From IMG/VR virus record IMGVR_UViG_2889436542_000005, positions 509 to 64,508 of that record: a DNA stretch of 64,000 nucleotides, one strand, 5' to 3'. The notes beneath the pieces were generated by a model. It saw only the letters and a program-made list of their open reading frames with translations, was not told the origin of the DNA and searched no databases. Positions within the stretch are counted from its first letter, which is position 1. Each line of letters opens with the position of its first letter. The position numbers and the translations under genes were made by a program. This DNA comes from a virus. Taxonomy: Duplodnaviria; Caudoviricetes. Positions 1,035-26,787 of the stretch are shown here, piece after piece.

Positions 1035-1493
1035 TTACCCAACCCCGAAATTCTTTAGTTCGTCCAGCAATCGCTCGTTTTCTTTCAAGAGACGTTCGTT
1101 CTCTTGATTTAATTCGAGCATTGTTTTTTGAGACTCCTTTTTGAACTTAGTCAGATCTTCGTTTTTTTGTACCAAGTCTCTATAGAACTCAGTCACTCGC
1201 AAATAAAATTCTTTCTGCAACTCTTCTCTTGAGACACATATGAAATTGTGGACTTCGTATTGGTATTGGGTGCACAGAACCAATCCCAAAATTGCATCAT
1301 GCCATCTTCTTATGAGCAGAACCAAAAGAACAAAAGCCGCATCTATAACAATTATTTCAATGTAATTTGAGATTAAAAAATAATGAAGAACTGAGCCAAA
1401 GATTGCTGTAGCAAATATCACTGCATAACGAGACATATCACAAGTGCGAATCTTGTTAGCAACTTCTGGGCTGACCTCAATTTCGGTTGCCAT
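1035..1493 (-). CDS. Hypothetical membrane protein with C-terminal coiled coil
   Basis: 152 aa, two hydrophobic segments then heptad-like E/K/L run; coupled to the ligase stop. Confidence 0.65.
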   Translation of the reverse strand: MATEIEVSPEVANKIRTCDMSRYAVIFATAIFGSVLHYFLISNYIEIIVIDAAFVLLVLLIRRWHDAILGLVLCTQYQYEVHNFICVSREELQKEFYLRVTEFYRDLVQKNEDLTKFKKESQKTMLELNQENERLLKENERLLDELKNFGVG

Positions 1494-2950
1494 TAAACAC
1501 TCCTAATCGCATTTTCAAACTGATCTCGCACTCTCTGTAAGTCATCAGCCTCAGTCTTGTCTTTTCTAAACTCAACAAAACGAGGTAAGAAAAGTGAATA
1601 CTTACCGCCCTCCTCTTCGGGTTCCATAATTGAGTTAAAGCGCACTGTAACAATGGAGTTTAAGAACTCGTTTCTATGCTCATTGATGAATGATCGGGTG
1701 GCGTCGTCAAACCCCGAAACCGAAACTTGAAGCGTGTCATCAGAGGTTGCGCATACGATAGAGCCAACATTATTTTCAAACTTGCCCTTACCCTCTTCAT
1801 AACCGACGATTTTCAGATCGCAGTCAACCGAAAGTTTCATCTTGATTTGAGCTTTTGAAGTCCCGTCCTTCCAAGTGCCAGAGAAAAGTTTGATGATTGC
1901 GCCCTCTTTGCCCTGATTCAACATCTTGCGATAAAAATTCTGAGCATCGTCAAAACTCTTGACCAATTCTGTTTTGACGATTTCTAAATGCTCAACCAGC
2001 AGAGGCTCTGATTCAGAATGATGCTGAGCAAAGTGAACTAATGCGGCTTTGTACTGACTGAGCAGTTTTGCAAAGCGATCTTTATAAGCCACTTTGTATT
2101 CTGTCCCCGTCAACGCATAGTCCAGAGGCACAGAGTCCCAAATGACCATCTTTACACGATATTCGTCGGGAACCTTCGAACCCGAGAGAACAGAATTAAG
2201 AATCCCATTTCCTTTCTCTCTGGGCAGAACTTCGCCAGTTTTCTTATCAACAATCAGCATCTCGCCATGAGATTGATGATCGCTCAAAAGAGCAATGCTA
2301 AGAATTGCTCTCGTCTCATCATCAAACAAAAGGCTTGGGTCATACTTCATACCCGTGCGGGTGTACAGCTCCAACTCTGCTTTGTCAGCATAATTATTGA
2401 TGTTGGTAAATGCACCATCGCATTTTTCTTGAATGAGTGCACTTGACCAATCAACTGACTCAAACGGAACCTGATTGGGCAAACTACAACGCATGTATGG
2501 AATGATGGGAATGATTGCAGGTTTGACCTTGTTGAGCGTCTTTGCACCAACCCCGACACGCATGTCTTTATCGACAATGCTTTTGAGAATTTTGCGACTT
2601 TCAAACGAAAGTCCCCAATACATAGAACTGAATAATTTAATACCATCGTCGGTATTTAAATTAATCTCGTTTGAATGAATTCTTTTCAGAATGTCATTAA
2701 TCAAAAACCCTTTTATTTTGTCTGACTGCTCTTCAGAAATAATTCTTTCACCAGCATTAAAATAATTGTAATAAGGGTTCAGCGCTTCTCTAAAAACATA
2801 CCAAAGAGGAGCATAAGAAACATTTGATTTAAGAATTACTTCTTTTTCCTTGCGTGAAGAAGTAGCAGATAAACTGTTTAAAATCCCATCAATTTTTTTT
2901 GCTTCTTCGTCAGAAATTTTTACTGTCGCACCGAGTGAATCATAATTCAT
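1493..2950 (-). CDS. ATP-dependent DNA ligase (phage type)
   Basis: Adenylation motif QEKCDG, EGAIIK motif, C-terminal OB fold (SLFLPRFVEFRKDK). Confidence 0.93.
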   Translation of the reverse strand: MNYDSLGATVKISDEEAKKIDGILNSLSATSSRKEKEVILKSNVSYAPLWYVFREALNPYYNYFNAGERIISEEQSDKIKGFLINDILKRIHSNEINLNTDDGIKLFSSMYWGLSFESRKILKSIVDKDMRVGVGAKTLNKVKPAIIPIIPYMRCSLPNQVPFESVDWSSALIQEKCDGAFTNINNYADKAELELYTRTGMKYDPSLLFDDETRAILSIALLSDHQSHGEMLIVDKKTGEVLPREKGNGILNSVLSGSKVPDEYRVKMVIWDSVPLDYALTGTEYKVAYKDRFAKLLSQYKAALVHFAQHHSESEPLLVEHLEIVKTELVKSFDDAQNFYRKMLNQGKEGAIIKLFSGTWKDGTSKAQIKMKLSVDCDLKIVGYEEGKGKFENNVGSIVCATSDDTLQVSVSGFDDATRSFINEHRNEFLNSIVTVRFNSIMEPEEEGGKYSLFLPRFVEFRKDKTEADDLQRVRDQFENAIRSV

Positions 2951-3005
2951 TGATTTCTCCCATGTTTAATGTTTTTCAATTTCAATTGCATCTATCTTGT
3001 TTACT

Positions 3006-3023
3006 TAAGTAAGTATTTACTTA
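3006..3023. promoter_or_regulatory. Palindromic operator copy 1
   Basis: TAAGTAA-GTAT-TTACTTA, intergenic upstream of the ligase. Confidence 0.75.
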
Positions 3024-3027
3024 TATT

Positions 3028-4125
3028 TTATCGTAAAGAAAGCAGGAACTTGATAACGCTTATCTTATTGATAGCAACTGCCTCCCAGAACGCCTCGATG
3101 ATTTCAGAGGGGGTACATTCGTTAGGGTCTTTGTCTTTCGGTAAAACGGCGATACGCACCGTCAGTCCTAGCTTTGCGACCTCTAAAGCGTATTTTGCGG
3201 CGTCTTTTAGAGCCTCCGTTTCTCCGTCCCACATAAAAGTACACACACGAAGCCCTTTTTCGCACAATTTTCTTAAGTAATCGATCTGTCCACCAGAGCT
3301 AAGTGAGATGTGCTTACCGAAAGAAGCGACGGCTAGAATTTTTGCAAACGCAGAATTTCCCCTAAAGGCTTGTCTGATGGCAATGCAGTCGAAGACTCCT
3401 TCCCCGATAACAATCTGATCGTGTCCGTCAAAATTCCAACCGTTGTAAAAGAGAGTGCCTGTAGCGTTCAGTCCTGGCGGGAACAGATAACGCTTTGGAC
3501 TCATCCCCGTATAGTCTCTTCCCTGAAAGGTGACGGTTTTACCGTTTATGTCAAAGATGGGAATTATGATGCGACCTGAGTAATCTTGATAGCCAATATT
3601 CCCGTCAGGTTTTCGATATTGAAAATACCCATTGGTGCAGTCGCCCAACTTGAAGTATTCGATCGATTCAAGAGAGATTCCTCTGTCAAGAAGGTATTTT
3701 GCACTCGCAAAGCCCGCCCCCTGTTGCTTAACCGTCTCAGCAATATCAATCATGGAGGGCATGAAAAATCTTGTGTCTTTGAACACGCTCTCTTGAGCAT
3801 GATTCACCTCTTTCTTCGGTCTCCATCCAGTCTCTTGCGAGACTTCTTGAATATGACGAGCGACATCTTTCTTAGAAAGGTTTTTTAACTCAGCGCAAAT
3901 AAACTTCCATTTATTGAACTTTGCTTGACAATCACCGTGAAAACAATTGCCAAGCCCCGTCTCTGCATTGAGATAAACTTTCCATTTGCTACCTCCGCAA
4001 ACGGGGCAAGTTTTTACGTTGAGCTGTACACCATGACTGCCCGTTGTTTTTCGATACTGAATACCTTCTCTATCTAGCCAATATTCGATATCAAGGGCGT
4101 CAATCGCTTCAGATAAATTATTCAT
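3028..4125 (-). CDS. DNA primase (Zn finger + Toprim)
   Basis: CPVC...CFHGDC zinc finger; GRIIIPI, GEGVFD, WDG and KDPNE Toprim motifs. Confidence 0.9.
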   Translation of the reverse strand: MNNLSEAIDALDIEYWLDREGIQYRKTTGSHGVQLNVKTCPVCGGSKWKVYLNAETGLGNCFHGDCQAKFNKWKFICAELKNLSKKDVARHIQEVSQETGWRPKKEVNHAQESVFKDTRFFMPSMIDIAETVKQQGAGFASAKYLLDRGISLESIEYFKLGDCTNGYFQYRKPDGNIGYQDYSGRIIIPIFDINGKTVTFQGRDYTGMSPKRYLFPPGLNATGTLFYNGWNFDGHDQIVIGEGVFDCIAIRQAFRGNSAFAKILAVASFGKHISLSSGGQIDYLRKLCEKGLRVCTFMWDGETEALKDAAKYALEVAKLGLTVRIAVLPKDKDPNECTPSEIIEAFWEAVAINKISVIKFLLSLR

Positions 4126-5050
4126 TTTGTTGACTCAGCACTTTCTTAACCAGCAAAAAACCTTTTGCGCCAACATTCAGAATCTTCTTGAGTTCTTCAT
4201 GACCAACAAATTCTGGATGATCTTTCATAAAGTCTTCAGTTGCATCTACAGTCAGCGCTTTAACAATTTTTGGTATTTCTTTTGCGTCTGTAGCATTCAT
4301 TTTTGAAAGCACCGAATAAACTCGCTGTTCAGTAAAGTAATTCACGAACAAGCTATTGGCGCCTTTGATCGTTCGCTTTAATTCCAACTCTTCAGCTGTT
4401 GGTTTTGATTTTGCTTTTTCTTCAAATCCCGCAAACTTGAGCTTAAACGACAGGTCAGAACTAATGTTGTGCAGAACAACTCCTTCACAAATTCCGTTCT
4501 CTGTCAGTACGCTATTTTGAGAAAGCTGTTCAAAGTTAATGTCTTTGAGCCGCTTTTTGTTCAGAATCGGCACTACAAACCTAGTCATATCTGTAGGATG
4601 CGCAGTGAAGTTGAGCTGAATCGCAACGTTGATTAAGTCTTGAAAATTTTTAAAACGCCAACCAATTTCGGTGCGAATTGCAAATCCAAACAAAAGAATT
4701 TGTGGTTTCTTGTCACCATACCAAAGACGATGAAGCTTTTGACTGTTGACTAATTCGCCATAAAGAGCATATCCATTGATGTATGGATACTGTTTAGAAA
4801 CTGCAACATCAATACTGTTAAGCATTAATTTGAGTCTCTCCATTGCTGTTTTAACATCTCTGTTTTGAGACCAATCTTCGCCATTGCGTGAAAAGATGCG
4901 CCAATCTTGATTGGGTTCTTTGCCCAGACAAAGATTACAGCCATCACATTTTTCCGTGATGTACACGACATCATTTGCGTGGTCCTTCAAAGCTTGTTTA
5001 TCAATTTGATAAAGGTTGTCCATGTGTGGCCAATGTTTAAATATGCTCAT
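4118..5050 (-). CDS. RNA ligase, Rnl2-like nucleotidyltransferase
   Basis: ITEKCDGCN (KxxG), FSRNG, YGEL, EGVV, FKLK motifs; no OB domain evident. Confidence 0.75.
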   Translation of the reverse strand: MSIFKHWPHMDNLYQIDKQALKDHANDVVYITEKCDGCNLCLGKEPNQDWRIFSRNGEDWSQNRDVKTAMERLKLMLNSIDVAVSKQYPYINGYALYGELVNSQKLHRLWYGDKKPQILLFGFAIRTEIGWRFKNFQDLINVAIQLNFTAHPTDMTRFVVPILNKKRLKDINFEQLSQNSVLTENGICEGVVLHNISSDLSFKLKFAGFEEKAKSKPTAEELELKRTIKGANSLFVNYFTEQRVYSVLSKMNATDAKEIPKIVKALTVDATEDFMKDHPEFVGHEELKKILNVGAKGFLLVKKVLSQQNE

Positions 5051-5059
5051 ATTTTCTCC

Positions 5060-6505
5060 TTAAACCCCTTCTGTTTCAGGTACAACAAACGAACCGATAG
5101 TTTTACTTGCACGACTCCCCTCAACCTTCACAACGTCGGTAATGAACTGCATCTTTGAGACATTCTGTTTTACCGTGATCGTGAGTCCTGATTCTGAGTT
5201 TCGACTGGCTACAAAATAGAGACGAGCCTCACCTTTCTCTCTTTCTTCTTGTGACACGTTGATAGAGATAACAATGTCAGCTGTTCTGACTTTGTTAAAG
5301 TCTTCAGCCACATGCTCCATTTCTGCAACTTTGCTTTTGGAGCCTTCTCTGTTTGTTTGCGTAGCAGTCAGCATCGCAACATTGAACTCAAACGCCAAAG
5401 CTCTCAAATCGACATAAATTGTTCTGAAGTTTTCAGTGATGTTTGTTGACCTTTGTTCTGGCGCCATCAAATCAGCATAGTCAAGACAAATAAGGTCGTA
5501 CTGCACACCCTTTTCTCTCATCGACTCAAGATAACGTTTCAGCGTTGAAACCTTGAGCGTGCCCGACGGGTACTCTCGAATATGAAAGAGTCCAACTTGG
5601 GGTTTAATATCGTCTTTTGTTGCAATGGCTTTATCTCGCAAACTTTCAATCTTTCTTTGAACCGTCAAGCTATGAGACACTAAATCTTTCATTGAGGTGT
5701 CAGAAATACAAGCGTCAATTCGATCAGAAATAATCCTTGCTGAGACTTCAAGCGTCACGTACAAAACGTTATAGCCTTTCAGACACGCAGATTGTCCAAA
5801 AAACAAGAGACTTAAGGATTTACCAGATTTTGCAGTACCCATCATCAAAGACAGCTCTTTTCGGCCCCAGCCTTTGTGATAAAGACATTCGTCAAATTCT
5901 CTGCAACCTGTAGTTATGCCGCTTGGGGGCAAAATCCCACTTTCAATGTCTTTTCTTGTTTCTGTTCGTTTTTTGATTTCTTCAAAGTAGTCATAGGACT
6001 TTACTTCGTCCTCTGCCCCAACTGATAAAGCTTCTTTCAGTTTTTTCTCAATCGTCGCCCAATCTCGCTTATCAATTAGCTCGACCGAGTCATAAATTGA
6101 TGCTGTAACGGCGCTTGAACGTGCAAACTCTACTAAATGGTCAATTAGGGCGTCGCAAGGCGGAAGAGAAACAGTTGGAGAATAAGCTTCTTTAAGTACA
6201 GGAATGACCTCGGAAACTTCTTCCTTTGTGAATATATGCTTTTTGATGTAGTCTTTTAAGGTCGTTGTCACAAGCGCATCGTTCAGCACGGTTTTATACC
6301 GCTCATAAAAGTCCTTTGCGACTTTACAACCCAAAGCTAAAGCTGTGCTGTCAAAATGCTGAGGCAACAAAAGGCCGTTTGCTCTGCGCATGAAATTTTC
6401 GTCACGCAAAGCGGAGATCACAAGCGCTTTTTGAAACGCTTCATCAAACTTATATTTAATCGGTTTCCCATCTTTCTCAGCGACGGGAATCACTGATTCG
6501 CTCAT
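5060..6505 (-). CDS. Replicative DnaB-like helicase
   Basis: Walker A GTAKSGKS, YVTLE, LDYADL, ATQTNR, ADIVISI; next to the primase. Confidence 0.92.
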   Translation of the reverse strand: MSESVIPVAEKDGKPIKYKFDEAFQKALVISALRDENFMRRANGLLLPQHFDSTALALGCKVAKDFYERYKTVLNDALVTTTLKDYIKKHIFTKEEVSEVIPVLKEAYSPTVSLPPCDALIDHLVEFARSSAVTASIYDSVELIDKRDWATIEKKLKEALSVGAEDEVKSYDYFEEIKKRTETRKDIESGILPPSGITTGCREFDECLYHKGWGRKELSLMMGTAKSGKSLSLLFFGQSACLKGYNVLYVTLEVSARIISDRIDACISDTSMKDLVSHSLTVQRKIESLRDKAIATKDDIKPQVGLFHIREYPSGTLKVSTLKRYLESMREKGVQYDLICLDYADLMAPEQRSTNITENFRTIYVDLRALAFEFNVAMLTATQTNREGSKSKVAEMEHVAEDFNKVRTADIVISINVSQEEREKGEARLYFVASRNSESGLTITVKQNVSKMQFITDVVKVEGSRASKTIGSFVVPETEGV

Positions 6506-6536: not shown

Positions 6537-6554
6537 TAAGTAAGCGATTAGTTA
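6537..6554. promoter_or_regulatory. Palindromic operator copy 2 (1 mismatch)
   Basis: TAAGTAA-GCGA-TTAGTTA upstream of the helicase. Confidence 0.65.
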
Positions 6555-8289: not shown

Positions 8290-10242
8290 TTAGATGGGAG
8301 ATTCGGTTGCAAAATCACGCTCATACCACTTACCGCCAGCAATAGCAAAGTTGGTAACGGGGATATATTCAAAATTAGTGACTTTGGTCTTGGTATCAAT
8401 ATGAACCAATCCAAAACCCAATCCCCACTTTTCGCCTTCGCAGTAACTTGCGCTTCGTTTGTGTCCGCAACCCAGTTGATGCCACTCATATGTTCCATAG
8501 GTTGGAGAAAAAGAACTCCAAACTATATGTTTATGGTGATGCCCGTGACATCCTGGCATTCCCATATCTCGAGCTTGAGGCAAATGATGAACGAGAAAAC
8601 TGTCGTAATAAACCTTGTAATTGTTTGCGAGTTCTTTTTCTTCATCACGCTTGCTCCAAGCCCGTAAATCGGCTTTTGCAATGTAATTAACTTCGTATTC
8701 GTCTAATCCCAGCAGTTTTGAAATCGTAAAACCGTGCAGATCAGAAAGCACCGCTCTTAATGCGGGAGTTGCTTCTGCCAAGTGCTTAATTAAACGACAA
8801 TTGCCAGTGAAATTTACGATTCCACCACGCTTTGTAATAAGTGTTCCGTCAACAGTCTGAACTGCCACAACTGTTTGTCTGTCGGTTCTTTCAACTGAAC
8901 AGAAAGCGTTAAGCGATCTTTTGAGAATGTTGATACGCCATTCCTTTTTCATTTCCTTGACTACACAAGGAGTGCCGTGAAGAACATAGGCAATTTGAAG
9001 AGCTTCGGCAACCTCTTTTGACGGCATTGTATAAGCTCTGCCGAGAGTGAAATATTTCTCTGACAAATGAGACTCAAGTTCTTTAAGCGTTTCAGCGCTG
9101 ACCTTCATCATTGCGCCAAAATCAACTGGCTTTGTGCCCTCAATCATCGCAAGAACATCACTCAAAGGGGGTGAGTCTTTGTGCTCAAGATTCATCACCA
9201 GTTTCTTTCTATTTGCCCTAAAGCCCTTTCTTTCAAACTGTTTTACAGGCTGTAATTTCCCATCAAGAAATATGTTGTGAGAAAGAGAAACGCATTCGTT
9301 TGCAAGCGTTCCTTCAACTAATACCGCTTGTACCAGTTTCAAACCTTTAAGGGCAATCGGATTTTCGAAATGAAGTTTTTCTTCTGACTGAGAGAAACTA
9401 GCTACTTTCATATCGAGACGCAGATTTGGTGCCAGAACCCAGCCTTTATCAGTCAGAACTTCTGTGTCCAGCGAAATACATTCATGATTGCCTTCAATAA
9501 GATCAATTTGGGAGTTAGGTGCTACTTTTCTCATCGGTTTCAGCACCTCGTCATGAACAAACTTAATGCGATTTACGACGTTCCACTCACGAGGGTCAAC
9601 AGAATATTTGCCAAACTCAGGTAAATCAAAGAGGTCTCCGCCAATGCAAATCACGTCGGGTTGCGCCCTTTTTGCCACATCAAGGAAGGTTCTCAAGAAA
9701 AATTTGTCGCACTCAACATCATGCAAGTCAGAGGCTATCAGAACCGTTTTAAAGCGATTTGAATTGGGCTTAAGGTACTTACCTTCATAATGCTGTCTTT
9801 CTTCGTTAAACGCTTTATATGCGTCCCTTGAAGCGTGTTTTGCAATGTCTTTTTCTAGCTGTTGCTGAGGGCGGGTAAGGGTCAGTCCAGCCTGTCGTTT
9901 GAACTCTTCAAATGTTCCGAAAAACCTGTTCCAAGTCGAATCAGAAGTTTGTGTGTGGTTGCGATAAAAATTTCTCGTGATGAATTTTTCTTCGTTTTCC
10001 TTTTGAACTTTCTGAAGCTCTTCAATGCAGTCATCTTTTGTGTACCCAGCTTTGAAGAAGCTAATGTCTTCAGAAAGAAGCTGTTTAGCTCTGTTGATAA
10101 GCACATATCCTTCATCACGAGCTTTCTTTGCTTTCTTTCTGACTGTTCTTTCATTGATGTGGAAGTGATTTGCCACGTCAATAATTTTTGGGAAATCTTT
10201 AAGGTTGTTATAAATTTGGACGAAGTTTTCTAATTCGCTCAT
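8290..10242 (-). CDS. Calcineurin-like metallophosphoesterase with N-terminal HTH-like region, intein-containing
   Basis: SDLHD, GGDLFD, GNHE and GHHHKH motifs; interrupted right after GNHE. Confidence 0.88.
   Translation of the reverse strand: MSELENFVQIYNNLKDFPKIIDVANHFHINERTVRKKAKKARDEGYVLINRAKQLLSEDISFFKAGYTKDDCIEELQKVQKENEEKFITRNFYRNHTQTSDSTWNRFFGTFEEFKRQAGLTLTRPQQQLEKDIAKHASRDAYKAFNEERQHYEGKYLKPNSNRFKTVLIASDLHDVECDKFFLRTFLDVAKRAQPDVICIGGDLFDLPEFGKYSVDPREWNVVNRIKFVHDEVLKPMRKVAPNSQIDLIEGNHECISLDTEVLTDKGWVLAPNLRLDMKVASFSQSEEKLHFENPIALKGLKLVQAVLVEGTLANECVSLSHNIFLDGKLQPVKQFERKGFRANRKKLVMNLEHKDSPPLSDVLAMIEGTKPVDFGAMMKVSAETLKELESHLSEKYFTLGRAYTMPSKEVAEALQIAYVLHGTPCVVKEMKKEWRINILKRSLNAFCSVERTDRQTVVAVQTVDGTLITKRGGIVNFTGNCRLIKHLAEATPALRAVLSDLHGFTISKLLGLDEYEVNYIAKADLRAWSKRDEEKELANNYKVYYDSFLVHHLPQARDMGMPGCHGHHHKHIVWSSFSPTYGTYEWHQLGCGHKRSASYCEGEKWGLGFGLVHIDTKTKVTNFEYIPVTNFAIAGGKWYERDFATESPI
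8800..9480 (-). mobile_element. Intein (227 aa) in the phosphoesterase
   Basis: Starts CISLDTEVLTDKGW; ends VNFTGN followed by Cys+1 (CRL); penultimate residue is Gly, not His. Confidence 0.85.
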
Positions 10243-11251
10243 GTTCTTCTAAGTTCTTTAACCAAACCTTGGCTATGCTTTCTCGAAGTTTGTAATACAG
10301 GCAGTCCGCATCATGTGTATTTGATGTATAACAGCCACCGCCGCAGGAGGCATAGGTTTCGCAGTTCTGGCACTCTTTTGTATTTGAAAATTTAGCCAGA
10401 TTGAACGAGATGGGTTTGATTGGGATATAAGGTTTAAAAATGTTGCCCGTAATGTTTGTCGGGCTATTGTTATGGTGGCAATTGTATGTGTTGCCGAACA
10501 GGTCTACAGAAAGAATTCTATCGTTAACGCATGGATTCGGCTTTCTCCCCTTGTAATTCAGTTCCTTTTGATAGCGATACAAAAAATGAGCAATGACAGT
10601 CTTGCAGAAGAGGTCTTGCTCGAAATTGGCCAGTTCATAAATTCCCATCATCGCTTGAAAGTAAGCAATGACATCTTCGTGTGTCATCCAATAGTTAGAA
10701 TGACATCCATTGTTCGCTTTGATCATGTCAAAGCCAATTGGTGGTCTTTTCCCGATTAGCTCACAAATACGCTCATAATCATCTTTCAGAAGCAGAGGGC
10801 TGACTCTTTTGTGATGAATGAGCGCTTCAATCGAAAAGTTTTCAAGTCTCCCGATTATCTTCCACTGCTCTGGACTAATGTCTCCGTCATGGAAAGAGAC
10901 GACGGTGAAGATGTCGGGATGCTGATTGCAGAAATCGACATATTCATCTGTAATCAGCGTTCCGTTTGTAGTAATTCGATTTCTTTTTGCCTGAATGACA
11001 GGCTGAAGTTCTTCATAAACTGCTTTAATGATTTTCCAATAAAGCATCGGCTCCCCACCCCAGTAATGAAGCGAAGTGATCTTCGTATTTGTTCTGTCAA
11101 GGTAGGACAGGAATTGCGAGGCGAACCCTTTCGAATCGCCTTTTTTATTCATCTTCTCGCCCTCTTCTTGCTGAAGACAGTAGCCGCAACGCAGATTGCA
11201 AGCCGAGCCGAAAAGCAGATTTACGGATTTGAAAGAACTTTGATTTTGCAT
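10208..11251 (-). CDS. Radical SAM/SPASM-domain protein 1
   Basis: CNLRCGYC (CxxxCxxC), WGGEPML, C-terminal C...VDLFGNTYNC...CQNCETYASCGGGC...C. Confidence 0.92.
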   Translation of the reverse strand: MQNQSSFKSVNLLFGSACNLRCGYCLQQEEGEKMNKKGDSKGFASQFLSYLDRTNTKITSLHYWGGEPMLYWKIIKAVYEELQPVIQAKRNRITTNGTLITDEYVDFCNQHPDIFTVVSFHDGDISPEQWKIIGRLENFSIEALIHHKRVSPLLLKDDYERICELIGKRPPIGFDMIKANNGCHSNYWMTHEDVIAYFQAMMGIYELANFEQDLFCKTVIAHFLYRYQKELNYKGRKPNPCVNDRILSVDLFGNTYNCHHNNSPTNITGNIFKPYIPIKPISFNLAKFSNTKECQNCETYASCGGGCYTSNTHDADCLYYKLRESIAKVWLKNLEEHERIRKLRPNL

Positions 11252-12135
11252 TCAGCTTTGTCCGAATACCATTTTGTGTTTAATTTGATTCTCATAACGT
11301 CGCCGTCAACCAAGTCAAGCGCCCTGACTTTGAACTTGCCTTTGCCGTCACGAATCTTGACTCGTTTGTGAGGAGCGTACCCATCTACCGCTTCAATTAT
11401 TAAGCCGTCCCAGTCCACGCCGCCAATCTTTTTATCTGTATTGCCTTGATAAAACTGGACTTCGATTTCTACAAGCTCATTGGGCTTGCAGTGATCGGGC
11501 GCTGTCATTCTCGGGAGAATGTTTAAGTAGCGTGAAGCACCGACTTTTTCATTGACGAACTCAGAAGGGGTTGTGTTGTCATCAACTCTGAGATTGGTAA
11601 TCATCTTGCCGTTTGGCTTTGTAGAAAACGACATGGCGCATTCGTCAACGTTGTCTCTCTTGTCTCGGCAAAAGATTTGACCAAGGGTTGTTCGGCCCAT
11701 AGAAATTGCCTGATAGGCCGAACGGTAGCGTGAAATGTAAGATTCTTTCTGAGTATCAATTAGAGACAAAATACCTTCGTTCTTTTTGACAACAAAAGCA
11801 ATGTTCCCCATTGGAACAAATGATTTGCGAATGAGCGACTCTTCTTTGTCAAAAATCTCTTCGAGCAAGATGAAGTATCTTTCGCCGTCAATTTCAAAAG
11901 AAAAATTGACATTGACTCTATTGAGTGACGCATTGTTGGTTGCGAGTTTCAGCGTGGAATGCAAAAGATTAATTCCATTTGCTGGCGTGCGCATAACCTT
12001 TTCCTCGATTTCTTCTGAAAGCGTCGAGACTTTTTCAAGAACACGCATTGCTAAGCGTGTTTTGTCAGCCGCATAATTCGTGACGTCATATGGAAATTTA
12101 TGACTGATAATGTGTCTTCTTGGTCTTTGTTCCAC
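11221..12135 (-). CDS. Hypothetical protein between the Cys-tailed fibre and radical SAM 1; beta-rich C-terminus
   Basis: Likely GTG start at 12135 preceded by GGAG; overlaps the radical SAM start. Confidence 0.75.
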   Translation of the reverse strand: MEQRPRRHIISHKFPYDVTNYAADKTRLAMRVLEKVSTLSEEIEEKVMRTPANGINLLHSTLKLATNNASLNRVNVNFSFEIDGERYFILLEEIFDKEESLIRKSFVPMGNIAFVVKKNEGILSLIDTQKESYISRYRSAYQAISMGRTTLGQIFCRDKRDNVDECAMSFSTKPNGKMITNLRVDDNTTPSEFVNEKVGASRYLNILPRMTAPDHCKPNELVEIEVQFYQGNTDKKIGGVDWDGLIIEAVDGYAPHKRVKIRDGKGKFKVRALDLVDGDVMRIKLNTKWYSDKAECKIKVLSNP

Positions 12136-12137
12136 TT

Positions 12138-13367
12138 TTATTCTCCACAATTGTCGTCATTGCAATCACAATCACAGCGACAATCACAATTACAGTTGGC
12201 TTTGTATCTTTCTCTTATTACTTGATGAGAATGCGAGGCTTTAACCAGCGCTTTAAGAATTGTGTTGATGTTGTAGTTCCCGTTTCCTGTCAGCTCTGGA
12301 AGGGTATCAACTGTTAAAAAAGTACGATGCAAAGTCAGATCGCCTGAGCCGCCTGAGTCAGTAAAAACGTCATACGTGTCATCAAAGGTGTCGACCTTGC
12401 ACCTATGAAATTTCGTCGTCGTCTGTCTCGGAGTTGTGTAAACGTTGTAGTCCAAGCCGTCAACGTTGGAAATTTTTGACGTCTGAGAATTCGAGTGCGA
12501 AACCTGGAGGTTGTTAACCTTTCCGTCACCAGCAATTTTCACCAACTCGCTAGCTCTGAAGCCACCAATCATTTCAGCATTCAGATTTTTATTCAGTGTG
12601 CCGTTATTGACCGCCAACTGTCCCGAGCCATTGCCAGCGTGGATACCGTCAACCATATCAGCGTTTAGATTGCTGTTAACCGTTCCGTTGTTAATCGAAA
12701 CTTGATTACTGCCGTTTCCTGCATGTAGCCCATCAACCATGTCGGCATTCAATCTTGTGTTGAGCACGCCATTGTTGATAGCAATCTGACCAGAATCGTT
12801 TCCTGGCTTATATCCACTAACTTTCTCAGCGTTCATACCTTTGATGACTTCGCCTGATGTGGAACCTGAGAAAATTCTGCCCCACGGAGTCCAGTCGCCG
12901 CCGATTTCAGTTCTAACCATGATGATGTCATGATTGAAACTGAACGCTAGCTGAGTTGCCCAACCGTCAGAATTACCATGTCTGAATTGTAGAACTCGCC
13001 ACTGCTTATCGCCTTCAGGGGCATTAAGCATGTTTGTCCCTTCATAGAAGCCAGTAGGCATCTTCTGCCAAAGATTCAAGTCCTTGGCGTCATAGTTTAT
13101 TGCGTTGCCTGCGCCACCTTCAATATGTCGGAACTCGCCATTCAGATCAGCGATCAGCTTCCATCCGTTCTTTAAATCATTGATGTCTATCAGCTGATAA
13201 AGTTTCTTTTCGTCAGTTCTGAAACAAAGCATTCCGTCAAAAACATTTGTAGTCGGGAATGTCGTACCAGAGTTACAAGAAATTGCTGTTTTGTCGTTGT
13301 TTAGAAGCGGCTGAAGAGAGTCTCGAATCTTTTCCGAACTCGGAATCTCTGTATATCGTTGAACCAT
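12138..13367 (-). CDS. Tail-fibre-like protein: anchor domain, pyocin-knob-like domain, 28-aa repeats, HxH, Cys-rich C-terminus
   Basis: N-terminus similar to 29155..29583; TGFY...NAP...WRVL...ATQLAFS...MVRT...WTPW knob signature; NADMVDGLHA repeats; ends NCNCDCRCDCDCNDDNCGE. Confidence 0.8.
   Translation of the reverse strand: MVQRYTEIPSSEKIRDSLQPLLNNDKTAISCNSGTTFPTTNVFDGMLCFRTDEKKLYQLIDINDLKNGWKLIADLNGEFRHIEGGAGNAINYDAKDLNLWQKMPTGFYEGTNMLNAPEGDKQWRVLQFRHGNSDGWATQLAFSFNHDIIMVRTEIGGDWTPWGRIFSGSTSGEVIKGMNAEKVSGYKPGNDSGQIAINNGVLNTRLNADMVDGLHAGNGSNQVSINNGTVNSNLNADMVDGIHAGNGSGQLAVNNGTLNKNLNAEMIGGFRASELVKIAGDGKVNNLQVSHSNSQTSKISNVDGLDYNVYTTPRQTTTKFHRCKVDTFDDTYDVFTDSGGSGDLTLHRTFLTVDTLPELTGNGNYNINTILKALVKASHSHQVIRERYKANCNCDCRCDCDCNDDNCGE
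12561..12833 (-). repeat. Three and a partial tandem 84-bp (28-aa) fibre shaft repeats
   Basis: NAEKVSG.../NADMVDGLHAGNGSNQVSINNGTVNSNL/NADMVDGIHAGNGSGQLAVNNGTLNKNL/NAEMIGG. Confidence 0.9.
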
Positions 13368-13376
13368 TTATTGTCC

Positions 13377-14216
13377 TCATGTAATTTGATGCTTGGGAAC
13401 CCAGAGTTTTTCTGTTGCCGTTGCAACCGTTCCTGCAAATGCCGATACTCTTTGTCCCATGATTGCAATGCAATCAAATCTGTCTAGCGGCATATTTGAT
13501 TCAGAAATAAAAACTGGAAGAGTCTGTTGTTCGCACCAGTCATAAAAATCTTCATAGTCAAACTTTTTCCGTTCACCGTCGTCACCTTTGTAAAGCTCCG
13601 AACGTGAATAAGGAATGTCGCAATAAATAACTCCTTGTTCAGTCAGAGGCACTTCTTTGTAATCACAGCTGTAGATTTTCAGTTTTGAAGAATCAAGAGC
13701 AATATTGCTGACGCCGCTATAACGAGCAATTCTTCCAACAACTGGATTTCTAATCATGTTGTCGATTAGATCGGGGTTCTTTTTCAAAACCCTTGCCAGC
13801 TTTCTGAAATACGAAAAGCGTTCTTCTGGAGTTTCGCAGACAATTGTTTTGTGCAAAATCTCATAGGGTTCTTCAAGGTCTTTGGCCACGAAGTAGCTTC
13901 TTTTGTTGCTGTTGAAGCTCCAGACCGAAGCGATGAAAGCGTCTTTGTTTTTCAGCGCATTGAATTGTTGAAGCCCAACCCAGTCATAAGCGTTTTTGTA
14001 CTTCCCTTCCAGTGCGTTTTTGAAAAGCTGAGACTGAGCGGTATTGATGTCATTCATCACAAACAAATCCCATTTGCCGCTTCGCATTGCGCTATGAGTT
14101 ACCGCCCCGCCACCACAGAAGAGGTCGTAAAACACGCCCCCAGAGGGGAGTTTGCTGATGATTTTTTCAGCAAACTTGCTTTTGGAACCTCTGTAAGGAA
14201 GACCGTAATTTGTCAT
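13377..14216 (-). CDS. DNA adenine methyltransferase (Dam/D12-like)
   Basis: LPYRGSK, YDLFCGGGAV (SAM binding), YCDIPY (DPPY-type); likely start 14216 by ATGA overlap. Confidence 0.88.
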   Translation of the reverse strand: MTNYGLPYRGSKSKFAEKIISKLPSGGVFYDLFCGGGAVTHSAMRSGKWDLFVMNDINTAQSQLFKNALEGKYKNAYDWVGLQQFNALKNKDAFIASVWSFNSNKRSYFVAKDLEEPYEILHKTIVCETPEERFSYFRKLARVLKKNPDLIDNMIRNPVVGRIARYSGVSNIALDSSKLKIYSCDYKEVPLTEQGVIYCDIPYSRSELYKGDDGERKKFDYEDFYDWCEQQTLPVFISESNMPLDRFDCIAIMGQRVSAFAGTVATATEKLWVPKHQIT

Positions 14217-14395
14217 TCGTCTTTTTTCTTCAGGCCGCACTTGTCTTCTGTAAAGTACTTGCGTTCATGAAATTCGCCCTTCTTACCGATGTTGTAAGAA
14301 GAAACAGGTCGGTGATAACCCATGACTCTCGACCACACTTCGCACGGCTGACGTTCTTCGTCTTTCAGTTCAATTTCTTCTTTTTCGTTATTCAT
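14213..14395 (-). CDS. Stand-alone NrdD C-terminal glycyl-radical domain
   Basis: 60 aa with CEVWSRVMGYHRPV (RVxGY glycyl-radical motif). Confidence 0.88.
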   Translation of the reverse strand: MNNEKEEIELKDEERQPCEVWSRVMGYHRPVSSYNIGKKGEFHERKYFTEDKCGLKKKDE

Positions 14396-14565: not shown

Positions 14566-16992
14566 TTAAGCATTTTCTTTCTCCCTCTGTTTCATCTTTT
14601 TGGTGATTAGCTCCGCATCACATTTGGGACAAAACTCATGTGCACCAGCGATGTAGCCATGCTTAGGGCAAATTGAGAATGTCGGTGTAATGGTGATGTA
14701 CGGAAGCTGATAGTGAGAGAATGTCTTCTTCACAATGTCTCTTGCCGCTTTCCAAGACGAAACTCTTTCTCCCATGTAAAGGTGAAGTACAGTTCCTCCA
14801 AGATAAAGTCTCTGCAAGTCTTCCTGATGGTCTAAAGCATCAAACGGGTCGTCAGTAAAACCAACGGGCAACTGTGTTGAGTTGGTGTAGTAACGCTCGC
14901 CTTCTGCTCCAGCTTGAATGATATTTGGGAAGCGTTTTCTGTCTTCTCTTGCAAAACGAGTAGCGGTGCCTTCGGCAGGTGTCGCTTCGCTGTTATAGAG
15001 ATTGCCCGTTTCTTCCTGATACTGCTGAATGCGCTTATTCAGGTGCTGTAAAAGCTCTACCGCCATAGTGTGGCCCTGTACGCTTGTAATGTCATATTCG
15101 TCACCAGAAAAGTTTCTAATCATTTCATTGACGCCGTTAACGCCAATAGTCGAGAAGAAATTTTTGAAGCCGCCGAGATAACGATTGGTATACGGGTAAA
15201 GCCCCTCTTTCATCAGACGAGTAATCGTTTTGCGCTTTAATTCAAGACTTGTTTTAGCAAGGTCGCAGAGGTAATCAAAACGCTTTAAAAGCCCTTCCCA
15301 ATCGTTTTTGAAGCAATAACCAAGACGAGCACAATTGATCGTTACAACCCCGATAGAGCCTGTCTGCTCAGCGGAACCAAAAAGACCATTTCCTCTATGC
15401 AGAAGCTCTGTCAAATCAAGGCGGAGACGGCAATTATGAGTTACCAAACCGTTCGCAAGTGTGAAAAGATGTTCTTCGTTCTCAACTTCAAAACAGTAAA
15501 GGTCGTCCCTTTCTTCACCTTCCTGAATATCAATGATTCTTGTGTAATCGAGACAAGAATCGTCTTTTGGCAGTTTCATTCCGCAAGCTAGATCTGAGCC
15601 AGCAAGCGTAACGACCTTTCCGTCAATAATCACGGGCTGAAGGTGATGAACCCCCATTTCCACATATTCGGCATTAGAGCAGAAAATCTTTCTAGTCTTT
15701 TGCTTTGTAGCTCTAACTAATTTTGCTCTGTGCCATTCGTTTTTATAGAGAACTTCAATTTTGTCTTTAATGCCCGACAATTTGCCAATATCAACAGTGC
15801 ATTCCAAGACCTCGCCGATTCTTACCCTAAGCTTGGTAGTGGGAGCCAGCGGGCACATAGAACGAATCATGTGCGGGTCAAGGTCAGAGTTCATGAAATT
15901 CTGAAAGTACGGAAGGCCATACTTAGCTGTCATTTCAAACATAAGTTTGGAGTTTTCGGAGTCCCAATCGAAATCATCCGTGATGTTGTAAGTTGGGATT
16001 GGGAAAGTGAAGACTCGCCCTTGCGCATCGCCCTCTGTCATGACTTCGATATAGGCACGATTAATCATGTCCATTTCTTTTTGAAGTTCGCCATATGTGA
16101 AATCAACTTCTTCTCCGCCAATAATCGGATGCTGTTCTTTCAGATCGTCAGGACAATGAATATCGAAAGTCAAATTGGTGAATGGAGTTTGTGTGCCCCA
16201 TCGACTTGGAACATTCAAGTTGAAAATGAATTCCTGAATGTTCTGCTTGACTTCTTCATAGGGAAGATTGTCAAGACGAACGAACGGAGCTAAGTAAGTG
16301 TCAAAGGAGCTGAAAGCCTGGGCACCTGCCCATTCATTCTGAAGCGTGCCGAGAAAATTCACTGCTTGAGATAGAGCAGAACTTAAATGCTTCGGCGGAT
16401 TACTTGATACTTTGTTCGGCACACCATTGAAGCCCTCATTAAGCAGTGCTCTTAGCGAGTGGCCACAACAGTAACCAGACAACATGTCCAAGTCATGAAT
16501 GTGGAAGTCTCCATTTCGATGAGCAAGTCCAACTTCTTTCGGGTAAACCGAACTTAACCAGTAGTTAGCGACTACCTTTCCGCTGACGTTCAGAATCATT
16601 CCGCCAAGGGAATAACCTTGGTTAGCATTGGCTTTAACTCGCCAATCGTCCTGATTGATGTATTCGTTGATAGAGCTTTCGACATCTACAGCGACTTTCT
16701 TCGTTTCACGAGCTTTAGTATGTTCGTGACGATAAATTGCATAAGCCTTGTAGGTGCTTTCGAACGAAGAATTGAAAAGCGCCTTTTCTACAATATCTTG
16801 TACTTCTTCTACAGAAATTGTTCTGCCCTTGTGGGCGTTGATTGCGGGAATGACCATTTGACGAACAATTTCATTTGCAACCATTGTTCCAAACTCATTG
16901 GTTGCAACGCCCGCTTTAGCAACGGCCTCACTAATCTTTGCGGGATTGAACGGCTCAATTGAACCGTCTCTTTTAATGATGGAAGTTATCAT
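14566..16992 (-). CDS. nrdD: Anaerobic (class III) ribonucleotide reductase large part, ATP cone, intein-containing, lacking the Gly-radical motif
   Basis: ATP cone IIKRDGS; NEWAGAQAFSSFD; SMC/CRL active loop; EATPAEG; ends CPKHG...CPKC with no RVxGY. Confidence 0.93.
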   Translation of the reverse strand: MITSIIKRDGSIEPFNPAKISEAVAKAGVATNEFGTMVANEIVRQMVIPAINAHKGRTISVEEVQDIVEKALFNSSFESTYKAYAIYRHEHTKARETKKVAVDVESSINEYINQDDWRVKANANQGYSLGGMILNVSGKVVANYWLSSVYPKEVGLAHRNGDFHIHDLDMLSGYCCGHSLRALLNEGFNGVPNKVSSNPPKHLSSALSQAVNFLGTLQNEWAGAQAFSSFDTYLAPFVRLDNLPYEEVKQNIQEFIFNLNVPSRWGTQTPFTNLTFDIHCPDDLKEQHPIIGGEEVDFTYGELQKEMDMINRAYIEVMTEGDAQGRVFTFPIPTYNITDDFDWDSENSKLMFEMTAKYGLPYFQNFMNSDLDPHMIRSMCPLAPTTKLRVRIGEVLECTVDIGKLSGIKDKIEVLYKNEWHRAKLVRATKQKTRKIFCSNAEYVEMGVHHLQPVIIDGKVVTLAGSDLACGMKLPKDDSCLDYTRIIDIQEGEERDDLYCFEVENEEHLFTLANGLVTHNCRLRLDLTELLHRGNGLFGSAEQTGSIGVVTINCARLGYCFKNDWEGLLKRFDYLCDLAKTSLELKRKTITRLMKEGLYPYTNRYLGGFKNFFSTIGVNGVNEMIRNFSGDEYDITSVQGHTMAVELLQHLNKRIQQYQEETGNLYNSEATPAEGTATRFAREDRKRFPNIIQAGAEGERYYTNSTQLPVGFTDDPFDALDHQEDLQRLYLGGTVLHLYMGERVSSWKAARDIVKKTFSHYQLPYITITPTFSICPKHGYIAGAHEFCPKCDAELITKKMKQREKENA
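15433..15852 (-). mobile_element. Mini-intein (140 aa), class-3-like Pro1, in NrdD
   Basis: RSMC|PLAPTTKL...DLYCFEV...NGLVTHN|CRL; excision restores SMCCRL. Confidence 0.85.
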
Positions 16993-18242
16993 AAGGATTC
17001 GAAGTTTTCTATTTTTTGAATATCAGCCTGGAAAAGCAAAAACCATGCTGTTTTGAAAATTGCTAAATGAAAAATGTTGTCGTTTATGCAGTTTTCGTCG
17101 TTTTGTAACGGACAGCCTCCTTTACAAAACTGAACAACGACACAATCTTTACAACCGATATCTTTGTGTTTCCAATGTCTGAACTGCGCTGAGAGGATGT
17201 TGTCATAATTCGACAATTCACCAATCTTGTGAGTTGCATGTGAATAGTTCTGACAGGAAATCACATTGCCCTTTAAATCAACCACAAGCACGTCTGAGTT
17301 CGGTGCTTCACAACGGGCACGAACCATTGAAATCGGTCTCTTGGTTGCGAGCGCCCTCAAAACCTTATTCACTGAGTCCGTGATGCTCTTAAATTGTTCT
17401 TGGTGATAAAGCAAGATGTATTTAATGTGGATTTCGAGAGTCTCTGCGTCTTTCTCAGAAAGAATGTCGCAGGGCGTCGAAGGCTGTACGATACCTTCAA
17501 AGCCAAAATTCGTTTCTGGCGAAAAGTGCCTTTGGAAGTAGTCGTAGACTCTCAGCAAATCACAATTAGCTCTCGTGATTACCACATTGAAGCCGAAACT
17601 TAAACCTGCTTCTCTGAACTTTTGATTTGCATAAAGCCACACGTTTTTAATTCTTGTGACGGTTAGCGGGTCCACCAAATCTCTCAAGCAATAGCCTTGA
17701 GCATCATGTGAGACAGCAAGAGATACACGGTGTTCGATGAACCAATCAACAAGTTCATAAGTCAAAAGAGTCCCGTTTGTGATGATATGCATCTCTGTTT
17801 CGGGATACATATCTCTCAAAGCAGGAATAAGCTTCTTGAGCGTTTTAAGGTAGACAAGGGGTTCGCCGCCCCAAAACTCAATTCGCCCGCCAGGTTTAAT
17901 TGAAAGTTCTTCTCGGCAGAGAGAAGCAATGAATGACTCGGCGTCACCCAAAGAATCGCTCTTAGATAGATGCCTAGACTCGGCTTGGGCACAATAGGAG
18001 CAATTAAAGTTGCATTTCAAACCTAGCTGTATTTTGAGTTTTGACAAACTCCTTGTCTTTTTGATCGGGAATAATGCTCTGTCACAAGTTTTATACGGTT
18101 TTTTTTCAATACCCGTCAATGCGGCGACATCGACTTCCTTAAGTTGGGCATCAAATATCTCGTTGGTTTCATTGTTGTAGTAGTGGACAATTTCAGTCTT
18201 GTCAAACGCCGACAAACTTGTGATTTTTAGAAGCATCGTCAA
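16989..18242 (-). CDS. Radical SAM/SPASM-domain protein 2
   Basis: CNFNCSYC, FWGGEPLV, C-terminal C...VDLKGNVISC...CKDCVVVQFCKGGC...C; ATGA-coupled to nrdD. Confidence 0.92.
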   Translation of the reverse strand: MTMLLKITSLSAFDKTEIVHYYNNETNEIFDAQLKEVDVAALTGIEKKPYKTCDRALFPIKKTRSLSKLKIQLGLKCNFNCSYCAQAESRHLSKSDSLGDAESFIASLCREELSIKPGGRIEFWGGEPLVYLKTLKKLIPALRDMYPETEMHIITNGTLLTYELVDWFIEHRVSLAVSHDAQGYCLRDLVDPLTVTRIKNVWLYANQKFREAGLSFGFNVVITRANCDLLRVYDYFQRHFSPETNFGFEGIVQPSTPCDILSEKDAETLEIHIKYILLYHQEQFKSITDSVNKVLRALATKRPISMVRARCEAPNSDVLVVDLKGNVISCQNYSHATHKIGELSNYDNILSAQFRHWKHKDIGCKDCVVVQFCKGGCPLQNDENCINDNIFHLAIFKTAWFLLFQADIQKIENFESL

Positions 18243-18251: not shown

Positions 18252-18297
18252 TAAGTAATCGTTTACTTAATTATAAAGATTGTCTGCCATACGTCAA
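18252..18297 (-). promoter_or_regulatory. Sigma70-type promoter with operator copy 3
   Basis: TTGACG (18297-18292)-N16-TATAAT (18275-18270), directly followed by the perfect palindrome at 18252-18269. Confidence 0.8.
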
Positions 18298-25914: not shown

Positions 25915-26060
25915 TTTTATGGTCTTCTTTTAGTAGTGTTATATTCTTTGTTTTGAGAAGAACGCTGTACGTCATCTTTGACGACAAGTTCTGTAAATTC
26001 ATCTCTGAATGATTTGTTTTCTCTACAAAAGGAGGGTTTCCCCTTTGGTTTTCTTTTACT

Positions 26061-26130
26061 AGGCAATTTGAATTGCCTCAAACATAAGCGAAGAAATTTG
26101 TGTACAATGAGCTTATTCGCTTATGTTTGA
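26061..26130. repeat. Two adjacent inverted repeats in the intergenic gap
   Basis: aggcaatt/aattgcct (26061-26078) and perfect 15-bp tcaaacataagcgaa (26078-26092) / ttcgcttatgtttga (26116-26130). Confidence 0.85.
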
Positions 26131-26177
26131 TCGAGTTACGAAATTACCTCTCATGAATTTCGATACGTAGCTCGGTT

Positions 26178-26216
26178 GCCCTCGGGTCTTGAACATGCCC
26201 GAGGGCATTTTCTTTT
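26178..26216. terminator. Hairpin terminator downstream of the tip-gene array
   Basis: gccctcggg/cccgagggc stem; the U-rich tail (attttctttt) is on the plus strand. Confidence 0.65.
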
Positions 26217-26748: not shown

Positions 26749-26787
26749 TTTATTGACCTTCTTGGTTTCGTCTCAATGAGAAAACTT

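Follow-up and report, generated by a model that had tools for sequence, protein, structure and literature searches.

Cysteine-ladder tail fibres encoded together with radical SAM/SPASM enzymes: a candidate fibre-maturation module in phages

Introduction

Several enzymes of the radical S-adenosylmethionine (SAM) superfamily that carry a SPASM domain are known as maturases of Cys-rich peptides. PapB of the freyrasin system and CteB, a SCIFF maturase (models NF047865 and TIGR03974, respectively; CteB structure PDB code 5WGG), act on Cys-rich repeats, in which they link Cys through thioethers to Asp or to other residues. In a streptococcal RaS-RiPP system (RiPP, ribosomally synthesised and post-translationally modified peptide), NxxcB, a radical SAM enzyme with auxiliary clusters, joins Asn(i) and Cys(i+3) of NxxcA through a β-thioether, and tolerates Asn, Ala, Gln and Asp as acceptors (PMC9389541). 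Whole proteins may also serve as substrates: in QhpD/QhpC and CrpC/CrpA the SPASM enzymes install thioethers that cross-link Cys to Asp/Glu or to other carbons (PMC13692751). Here we describe a locus in a gut-type phage of the Caudoviricetes which encodes a predicted side tail fibre ending in a ladder of alternating cysteines, a protein of around 300 residues that we call mid, and two radical SAM/SPASM enzymes, rSAM1 and rSAM2. The window, by which we mean the whole stretch of DNA analysed (64,000 nucleotides; positions 509 to 64,508 of IMG/VR record IMGVR_UViG_2889436542_000005), covers almost all of a 64.5-kb phage genome that lies on a single contig.

The locus resembles each of these systems in part. 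The NCNC of its ladder amounts to overlapping NxxC motifs of the NxxcA kind, and the acceptor tolerance of NxxcB resembles the range of residues found between the ladder cysteines, a likeness of the substrate motif only, no NxxcB model being among the listed matches of the enzymes. Unlike NxxcA, which is a short leader-core peptide, the presumed substrate here is the C-terminus of a 409-residue virion fibre, and the system is phage-encoded, comprises two enzymes and an immunoglobulin (Ig)-domain protein, and lacks Rgg/SHP regulation. With PapB and CteB there is a shared SPASM architecture, the PapB model being among those that score best for rSAM1 and CteB its closest solved relative; the scores, however, are far under the family cut-offs, rSAM1 lacks an N-terminal RiPP recognition element (RRE) and the substrate would be a structural protein. 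The targets of QhpD and CrpC are, respectively, cellular enzyme subunits and archaeal Cys-rich proteins, and both systems use an RRE or leader, whereas the target here would be a viral host-recognition fibre. A final parallel is offered by the Peptidase_S74 intramolecular chaperone and the Tfa/DUF4376 proteins, where the fibre C-terminus depends on a helper of its own, encoded at that end or behind it; those helpers depart once the fibre has folded or trimerised, while the helper set here includes redox enzymes expected to alter the fibre covalently. A preliminary description of this DNA, made from its letters alone, knew of no characterised system of this kind. That statement agrees with the literature searched, apart from the protein-level precedents of QhpD/QhpC and CrpC/CrpA: no publication on a ladder-fibre/radical SAM system was found there, the searched literature being mostly that outside subscription journals.

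A cysteine ladder at the fibre C-terminus

The fibre open reading frame (ORF; 12138-13367, minus strand, 409 residues) ends in HSH...NCNCDCRCDCDCNDDNCGE. Its last 31 residues, HSHQVIRERYKANCNCDCRCDCDCNDDNCGE, hold seven Cys, six of them in a single CxCxCxCxCxC run, just as the preliminary description had read them. The ladder proper, NCNCDCRCDCDC, spans residues 391-402 (12162-12197, minus strand) and is followed by NDDNCGE and the stop codon. An HxH motif (H379-S-H381; 12225-12233, minus strand) is positioned 10 residues ahead of it. A six-frame reading of the 64.5-kb genome shows no other alternating-Cys run of five or more, nor a second run of three or more that lies inside a real gene; with such uniqueness the ladder is not a chance feature.

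Across 38 aligned homologues (42-68% identity) there is little or no variation in the Cys columns, with C392 invariant and C394 and C396 at least 90% conserved, while the intervening x positions vary. Over 56 distinct ladders, x is Asn in 46%, Asp in 29% and Arg in 9% of cases, followed by Thr, Lys, Gln and Ala. Three or more consecutive x-C units are retained in 45 of the 52 best homologues. In 42 of these 45 the protein stops 0-14 residues past the ladder, its end being acidic in most cases (S/GDDxx or GDSDTDG), and in the other three, as in several more distant homologues, an extra domain of approximately 145-168 residues follows. The HxH motif is invariant in the 38 aligned homologues and lies 5-16 residues ahead of the ladder in 38 of the 45 ladder-bearing ones. 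By analogy with T4 gp37 and pyocin fibres, it may be a metal-binding site.

In gp028 of Achromobacter phage JWF and in the homologues P0071 and P0078 the ladder is followed by a Hint domain (PF05203), the first Cys of which directly follows the ladder; the fibre of Achromobacter phage 2-1 likewise combines the ladder with a self-cleaving Hint domain. For P0037, one of the three extended homologues, no Pfam match was obtained. Hint domains self-cleave at their own N-terminal Cys, so that cleavage at the residue directly after the ladder should leave a mature protein that also ends there. The window fibre, ending 7 residues past its ladder, falls outside this Hint-capped class. Weak Hint/PT-HINT matches are also present in the gpJ-like central fibre genes of three ladder-less relatives (L248-L250, at approximately 1300-5400) and, judging by these matches, these tails employ Hint modules in at least two positions.

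Other Cys-rich ends are seen in the same module. One locus (L255, 2490-2834) encodes a small fibre-type protein with CTTVQ-type pentad repeats ending CCDCDCRCYNNDCKDDEN, another (L252, 4279-6113) an Mtd_N-type protein ending CTYCTHCGHCTHCS, and in some loci there are small ladder proteins of 95-135 residues. The enzymes may accept several Cys spacings.

Co-occurrence of the ladder with radical SAM/SPASM genes

An exact pattern scan of IMG/VR for [ND]C[ND]C[ND]CxC[ND]C returned at least 119 loci. Of the 119 listed, 61 were classed as terminal-ladder loci, in which the motif falls in the final 30 residues of an ORF 80 or more residues long; the other 58 are internal or low-complexity matches. 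A homologue of rSAM2 or of its JWF counterpart gp030, sought by tblastn and on the same strand, accompanies 49 of the 61 terminal ladders and 3 of the 58 other motifs among the matches listed (Fisher odds ratio 75, p 4e-18, a value that overstates independence as the loci represent some 20 sequence clusters). The enzyme gene lies 19-3100 bp downstream in 46 of the 49 and just upstream in three (L009, L025 and L072). Of the 12 terminal-ladder loci without it, one is a low-complexity CG/CD ORF, and in the remaining 11 the downstream flank is shorter than 2.5 kb. The preliminary description had named this co-occurrence beforehand as a check on its pairing of enzyme and ladder. The pairing stands, in that a SPASM enzyme does track the ladder, but the partner has to be amended: the main tracker is rSAM2 (16989-18242), outside the region first pointed to, and not the adjacent rSAM1.

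The enzyme follows the ladder rather than the fibre family. No Radical_SAM gene lies within 7 kb of the ladder-less fibre homologues with the same N-terminus (P0088, P0120, P0104 and P0080), and such a gene is present near all six ladder-bearing fibres compared (L122, L245, L246, L123, JWF and 2-1). In JWF and 2-1 the gene order is fibre (ladder plus Hint), a 240-residue unknown gene and a radical SAM gene (phrog_1802). A compact order of fibre, mid, rSAM1 and rSAM2 is seen in L051, L091, L052 and L252 (Parasutterella-type prophage). The lineage of the window itself (L122, L245 and L246, whose fibres are 50-64% identical to the window fibre) has instead rSAM2, NrdD, NrdG/methylase, fibre, mid, rSAM1, phosphoesterase and PhoH, an order which places the nrd genes inside the module. 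The pairing of ladder and radical SAM gene recurs in dozens of other phages, and the ladder-tailed fibre together with its SPASM enzyme or enzymes, with or without mid, is a conserved mobile module.

Enzyme number varies between loci. In a Sutterella-type prophage (L123/L124, 9191-12978) three consecutive radical SAM genes, of 300 residues (without the SPASM motif), 367 and 336 residues, and a 263-residue ORF follow a ladder fibre ending NCNCKCNCTSTSGDSDGF.

A scan of bacterial genomes with the same motif returned mostly GC-rich low-complexity CDCDCD sequence, with 2 of 120 phage-type among the matches listed; these give no usable indication of host range. Five loci from Clostridia metagenome-assembled genomes (L135, L179, L182, L195 and L241) encode proteins of about 145-175 residues with a CPxCG zinc-ribbon motif and a C-terminal DCDCDCDC(D/E).

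The fibre protein

The identification of ORF 12138-13367 as a side tail fibre is well supported by comparison of its parts with other phage proteins, namely a shared anchor, the position of homologues after gpJ, a pyocin-knob-like domain and LNADxLDGxHAGN repeats. The N-terminal virion anchor (residues ~1-75) is followed by the knob-like domain (~76-165), three repeats of some 28 residues with the LNADxLDGxHAGN pattern (~175-270), a hypervariable stretch (~290-360) and then a conserved helix bearing the HxH motif, the Cys ladder and the acidic end. Residues 2-83 are 45% identical to JWF gp028, the equivalent protein of phage 2-1 matching likewise, and in both phages the fibre gene comes after the central fibre J gene. 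In the ladder-less relatives L248-L250 the fibre gene lies two small genes after gpJ, as it does in JWF. A weak match to the F2-pyocin side fibre (E 0.019) covers residues 74-167, and a Sutterella homologue (P0050) is labelled 'pyocin knob domain-containing protein' by NCBI; the window fibre itself has no Pfam match. The call of a fibre-like gene far from the tail operon in the preliminary description is borne out: the operon (tape measure, minor tail proteins and gpJ-like central fibre) is at 31990-44143, 18.6 kb from the fibre gene, whose neighbours are nucleotide-metabolism genes.

The anchor recurs in a 142-residue anchor plus coiled-coil protein (29155-29583, minus strand; 44-47% identity over 55 residues by tblastn), the gene for which adjoins an array of tail-collar tip genes and a 487-residue fibre. 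By this similarity the anchor is a virion-attachment module common to two fibre systems of this phage. The second, multi-tip system on the same anchor occupies 24451-29583 (minus strand). Within it, the anchor-only protein, five short tail-collar ORFs (GGxQPHNNxPPY) and a knob-like ORF lie at 26215-29583, and the 487-residue fibre, with an S74-type chaperone end, comes after the array at 24451-25914.

Two radical SAM/SPASM enzymes

The rSAM1 gene (10208-11251, minus strand, 347 residues) encodes the CX3CX2C motif at residues 18-25 (C18/C22/C25) and a SPASM Cys set made up of CX11GX4C at 241-258, CX2CX5CX3C at 294-307 and C317. In rSAM2 (16989-18242, minus strand, 417 residues) the CX3CX2C cysteines are C77, C81 and C84. 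The complete seven-Cys SPASM motif (CX9-15GX4C...CX2CX5CX3C...C) is found in rSAM1, rSAM2 and JWF gp030. Both window enzymes score above the cut-offs for Pfam Radical_SAM (PF04055; 33.3 for rSAM1 and 38.8 for rSAM2, cut-off 29.5) and for the SPASM model TIGR04085 (34.7 and 41.8, cut-off 27). By these matches they belong to the radical SAM superfamily and the SPASM subfamily, with two predicted auxiliary [4Fe-4S] clusters.

The two enzymes share just 24% identity. The orthologue of JWF gp030 is rSAM2 (32% identity over 357 residues, E 2e-53); the match of gp030 to rSAM1 covers the N-terminal part only (E 4e-11) and is not orthologous. When 68 full-length SPASM ORFs from 52 loci were typed, 33 loci had the rSAM2 type (type 2) only, 9 had types 1 and 2, none had type 1 alone and 10 had other types. 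In sequence terms rSAM2 is thus the core enzyme accompanying Cys-ladder tails in most phages, and rSAM1 may be regarded as accessory since type 1 is always accompanied by type 2 (9/9 loci). The rSAM1-type family is small, with some 22 clusters, some from Parasutterella. Its cluster motif starts at residue 18, there being no N-terminal extension and no room for an RRE. The N-terminal extension of rSAM2, of about 70 residues, aligns only to the latter part of the N-terminal region of CteB.

Neither enzyme can be assigned to a characterised maturase family. The best curated models for rSAM1 are PapB, nif11-type, SCIFF, QhpD, anaerobic sulfatase maturase (anSME), DynA and CcpM, and those for rSAM2 are geopeptide, PapB, QhpD, anSME and CcpM, with all scores far below cut-offs. 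Scores for rSAM1 and rSAM2, respectively, are 88.7 and 66.6 for PapB (NF047865, cut-off 340), 58 and 37.5 for the SCIFF maturase (TIGR03974, cut-off 425), 48.6 and 59.5 for anSME (TIGR03942, cut-off 349) and 55.8 and 59.9 for QhpD (TIGR03906, cut-off 453). The CrpC-type model TIGR04463 (cut-off 525) gives 35.5 for rSAM2, and the NrdG model TIGR02495 (cut-off 131) gives 31 for rSAM1. The best solved relative of rSAM1 is CteB (5WGG, E 3e-9).

Mid, an Ig-domain protein

Between the fibre and rSAM1 lies mid (11221-12135, minus strand, about 304 residues), for which Pfam, NCBIfam and PHROGs offer no match. Its start is placed at the GTG at 12135, 4 nt past the fibre stop and 8 nt past a GGAG, although the ORF finder lists a TTG at 12150; these spacings make the GTG the likelier start, in agreement with a 304-residue database copy. 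The rSAM1 start codon lies 31 nt ahead of the mid stop codon, such that the two genes overlap, and from this arrangement fibre, mid and rSAM1 are predicted to be translationally coupled. The tight succession of a gene of some 300 residues and a radical SAM/SPASM gene after the fibre had been remarked in the preliminary description, and both the spacing of the genes and the Pfam and TIGR04085 scores accord with it.

A word-indexed search found ten relatives of mid. The family proved far larger in a profile search of 1.84 billion representatives, which gave 709 clusters at E<=1e-3 and 380 at E<=1e-10, mostly of 260-330 residues and aligned nearly end to end. The AlphaFold model (predicted local distance difference test, pLDDT, 86.8; predicted template modelling score, pTM, 0.82) contains at residues 210-309 a Big_1/invasin-type Ig domain (VIA-align Z 10-11, root mean square deviation 2.2-2.7 Å over 90-95 residues), with intimin and GH2 enzymes supplying the matching Ig domains. 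From the ESM Atlas came leads to Big_1/invasin alone, all under 0.9. Modelled alone, the N-terminal domain (residues 1-209) has a pLDDT of 78 and, at E<=0.001, Foldseek found no match to it in the PDB. The best VIA-align match is SPP1 gp22 at Z 4.4, with the phage 1358 receptor-binding protein, Mtd and TssK at Z 2-3.3, values too weak to name a fold; the receptor-binding flavour of the list is only a hint from modelling. Full-length look-alikes of the domain were found among uncharacterised viral proteins.

The mid-family hidden Markov model (HMM) matches the ORF directly after the ladder protein in 28 IMG/VR module loci, and a distant member, P0264, sits between radical SAM genes downstream of a small Cys-pentad/ladder protein. 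Elsewhere (L117, L028, L043 and L077) the enzyme gene directly follows the fibre. The 240-residue JWF gp029 shows no relation to mid by BLAST or family HMM and weakly matches the 232-residue middle ORFs of five loci. On these comparisons mid is a frequent, though not universal, third component. In the ladder-less relatives the slot after the fibre is taken by a small DUF4376-type assembly protein, and ladder-less homologues of the fibre have either S74 ends or such a DUF4376 neighbour. The odds that mid is an escort, assembly or tip-cap protein are about even.

A proposed fibre-maturation pathway and its alternatives

We propose that the locus encodes a fibre-maturation module of four parts, the ladder-tailed side fibre, rSAM2 as core enzyme, rSAM1 as accessory enzyme and mid. 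The ladder, (N/D/x-C)6, would be modified during infection by both enzymes, each drawing on SAM-derived radicals and on its auxiliary Fe-S clusters. The likeliest product would be bridges from Cys sulphur to carbon, candidates being β-thioethers to neighbouring Asn/Asp, as in the chemistry of NxxC, PapB and QhpD, or α-thioethers. The fibre end could thereby become a rigid knot that withstands reductants and proteolysis and in which the three chains might be stapled to one another, and the two different enzymes would make two sets or kinds of links. Mid, in the slot held by the tail-fibre assembly protein of ladder-less relatives, would probably escort or cap the fibre end. To this explanation as a whole we assign a probability of roughly 0.55. 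That the enzymes act on the ladder we consider likely, and the specific choice of thioether chemistry comes out a little short of even. The fullest version, in which the SPASM enzymes weld the ladders of three chains into one thioether knot, mid presents or caps it and Hint serves, in some lineages, as a self-removing follower, is doubtful.

That the ladder is the substrate is suggested by the proposal that SPASM auxiliary clusters bind substrate Cys (PMC9389541), and by the fact that the fibre is the only ladder protein of a genome with two SPASM enzymes. The thioether assignment draws on the nearest curated or solved relatives (PapB, SCIFF/CteB, QhpD and CcpM), which are Cys-thioether maturases, on the dominance of Asn and Asp at the Cys-flanking positions, with NCNC as overlapping NxxC of the NxxcB substrate, and on the whole-protein precedents QhpC and CrpA. 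The overlapping or abutting start and stop codons and the single operator-controlled promoter upstream of rSAM2 argue for a module. The case as a whole is made from gene content, synteny, family membership, conservation and co-occurrence, and against the proposed pathway count several points. On the side of the chemistry, no characterised family cut-off is reached by either enzyme, so that the reaction type is extrapolated from distant relatives, anSME, which converts Cys to formylglycine, standing about as near to the two enzymes as the thioether maturases do; an RRE is missing from rSAM1, nor was a leader-like element identified; and the x positions are not strictly Asn/Asp, hence a side-chain-specific acceptor is not required. 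On the side of the genes, rSAM2 and the fibre lie 3.6 kb apart in the window with the nrdD/methylase insertion between, their co-transcription is a prediction, as is incorporation of the fibre into the virion. Lastly, the five Clostridia loci with Cys-Asp tails have no radical SAM gene in the 8-kb locus, although these tails appear to be an unrelated class.

The relative standing of anSME makes it conceivable that the enzymes modify the ladder without forming thioethers, giving formylglycine-like aldehydes, epimerised residues, C-C or other links, or a cofactor-like structure. The anSME model aligns over the full length of rSAM2 (residues 73-413, E 2.9e-16), anSMEs act on whole proteins without an RRE, which rSAM1 also lacks, the acceptor positions vary, and two or three different radical SAM enzymes per locus hint at more than one reaction. 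The score of 59.5 is nevertheless far under its cut-off of 349, the ladder contains no CxPxR or CxAxR of the anSME substrate motif C/S-x-P/A-x-R, and the closest-scoring models and best solved match of rSAM1 are thioether enzymes, leaving these other chemistries unlikely. Nor need the ladder be modified at all: it might bind Zn, Fe or Cu in metallothionein-like fashion, carry Fe-S or form a disulfide clasp locking the trimer, with the enzymes acting elsewhere or aiding delivery. With 21 Cys per trimer chelation would be good, the invariant HxH 10 residues ahead could, by the fibre analogy we assume, bind metal on the trimer axis, and the Clostridia zinc-ribbon proteins do have Cys-Asp tails without radical SAM genes. 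A ladder that needs no enzyme is, however, hard to reconcile with a radical SAM gene that tracks the ladder and not the fibre family, the genome has no other Cys-rich candidate substrate, and we know of no SPASM enzyme that acts as a metal chaperone; this too is unlikely, if anything slightly more so.

Two further explanations fare worse. The RiPP-like core composition of the tail, and the small ladder proteins of some loci, would suit a fibre body that acts as a giant leader from which the modified ladder is cleaved and released as a RiPP-like peptide, a bacteriocin or signal. But no protease or exporter gene was seen in the module, the ladder is at the extreme C-terminus of proteins bearing a virion anchor, the Hint variants remove the sequence after the ladder and not the ladder itself, and the modules lie within tail-fibre clusters adjoining lysis genes, all of which makes release very improbable. 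Alternatively, the adjacency might be coincidental and the radical SAM genes serve nucleotide metabolism, as NrdD activase or in a viperin-like role: rSAM2 overlaps the nrdD start by 4 nt in a genome without NrdG, and weak matches to NrdG and viperin models exist. Yet orthologues adjoin ladder fibres in phages without nrdD (JWF, L051, L091 and L252 among them), and coincidence, the least probable of the explanations considered, is largely refuted by this synteny. The identity of rSAM2 as an NrdG can itself be rejected, given its SPASM domain, which NrdG lacks, NrdG scores below cut-off (31, for rSAM1, against 131) and the true NrdG that L122, L246 and L123 encode besides their SPASM enzymes.

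Implications

Tail fibres determine host range and must withstand proteases, reductants and bile, for example in the gut. To our knowledge, the cross-links described in virions so far are autocatalytic, as with the HK97 isopeptides. The tips of the fibres considered here are probably chemically modified by phage enzymes. If the proposed pathway is correct, enzyme-installed cross-links at the fibre tip would represent a new principle in virion assembly, and RiPP-type post-translational modification of a virion host-recognition protein a new role for radical SAM chemistry of that kind. Engineered or heterologous fibres, pyocins and phage-therapy chassis derived from such phages would then need the maturase genes in order to function. 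The question is open to direct testing, the system being present in two Achromobacter phages that can be cultivated, JWF and 2-1. As regards annotation, many phage entries under 'radical SAM domain protein' (phrog_1802) are accounted for by the module, and the hitherto unnamed mid family of around 300 residues is now defined.

Organisation of the locus

All genes of the locus are on the minus strand, in the transcription order rSAM2, NrdD, a 60-residue NrdD piece, methylase, fibre, mid, rSAM1, metallophosphoesterase and PhoH. No near-identical DNA turned up when the region was compared with the phage collection by Megablast. Directly upstream of rSAM2 is a promoter-like TTGACG-16-TATAAT (18270-18297, minus strand) agreeing with the consensus at 11 of 12 positions, its near-consensus -10 box abutted by an 18-bp palindromic operator (18252-18269, minus strand). 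The palindrome, TAAGTAA-N4-TTACTTA, occurs at five sites in the window (3006-3023, 6537-6554, 18252-18269, 45493-45510 and 61862-61879) against 0.03 expected, each at an operon start, a distribution by which it is probably a phage repressor operator. After 18252-18269, the next site downstream along the minus strand is at 6537-6554. Judged from the consensus match only, rSAM2, nrdD, dam, fibre, mid and rSAM1 probably form a single transcription unit starting at the 18252-18297 promoter.

The NrdD of the window is split. An 808-residue ORF (14566-16992, minus strand) contains the ATP-cone, the NRDD halves and an intein-like insert, and a 60-residue ORF (14213-14395, minus strand) aligns to the last 32 positions of the NRDD model, its glycyl-radical end. 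No NrdG homologue was found across the whole window genome; the Dam-type methylase (13377-14240, minus strand) occupies the slot that NrdG has in the relatives L122, L246 and L123. Downstream of rSAM1, the metallophosphoesterase (8290-10242, minus strand, 650 residues, phrog_20266) has a large insert and an HNH_repeat match, probably an intein or homing element, and homologues of 652-714 residues lie downstream of rSAM1 in L122, L245 and L246.

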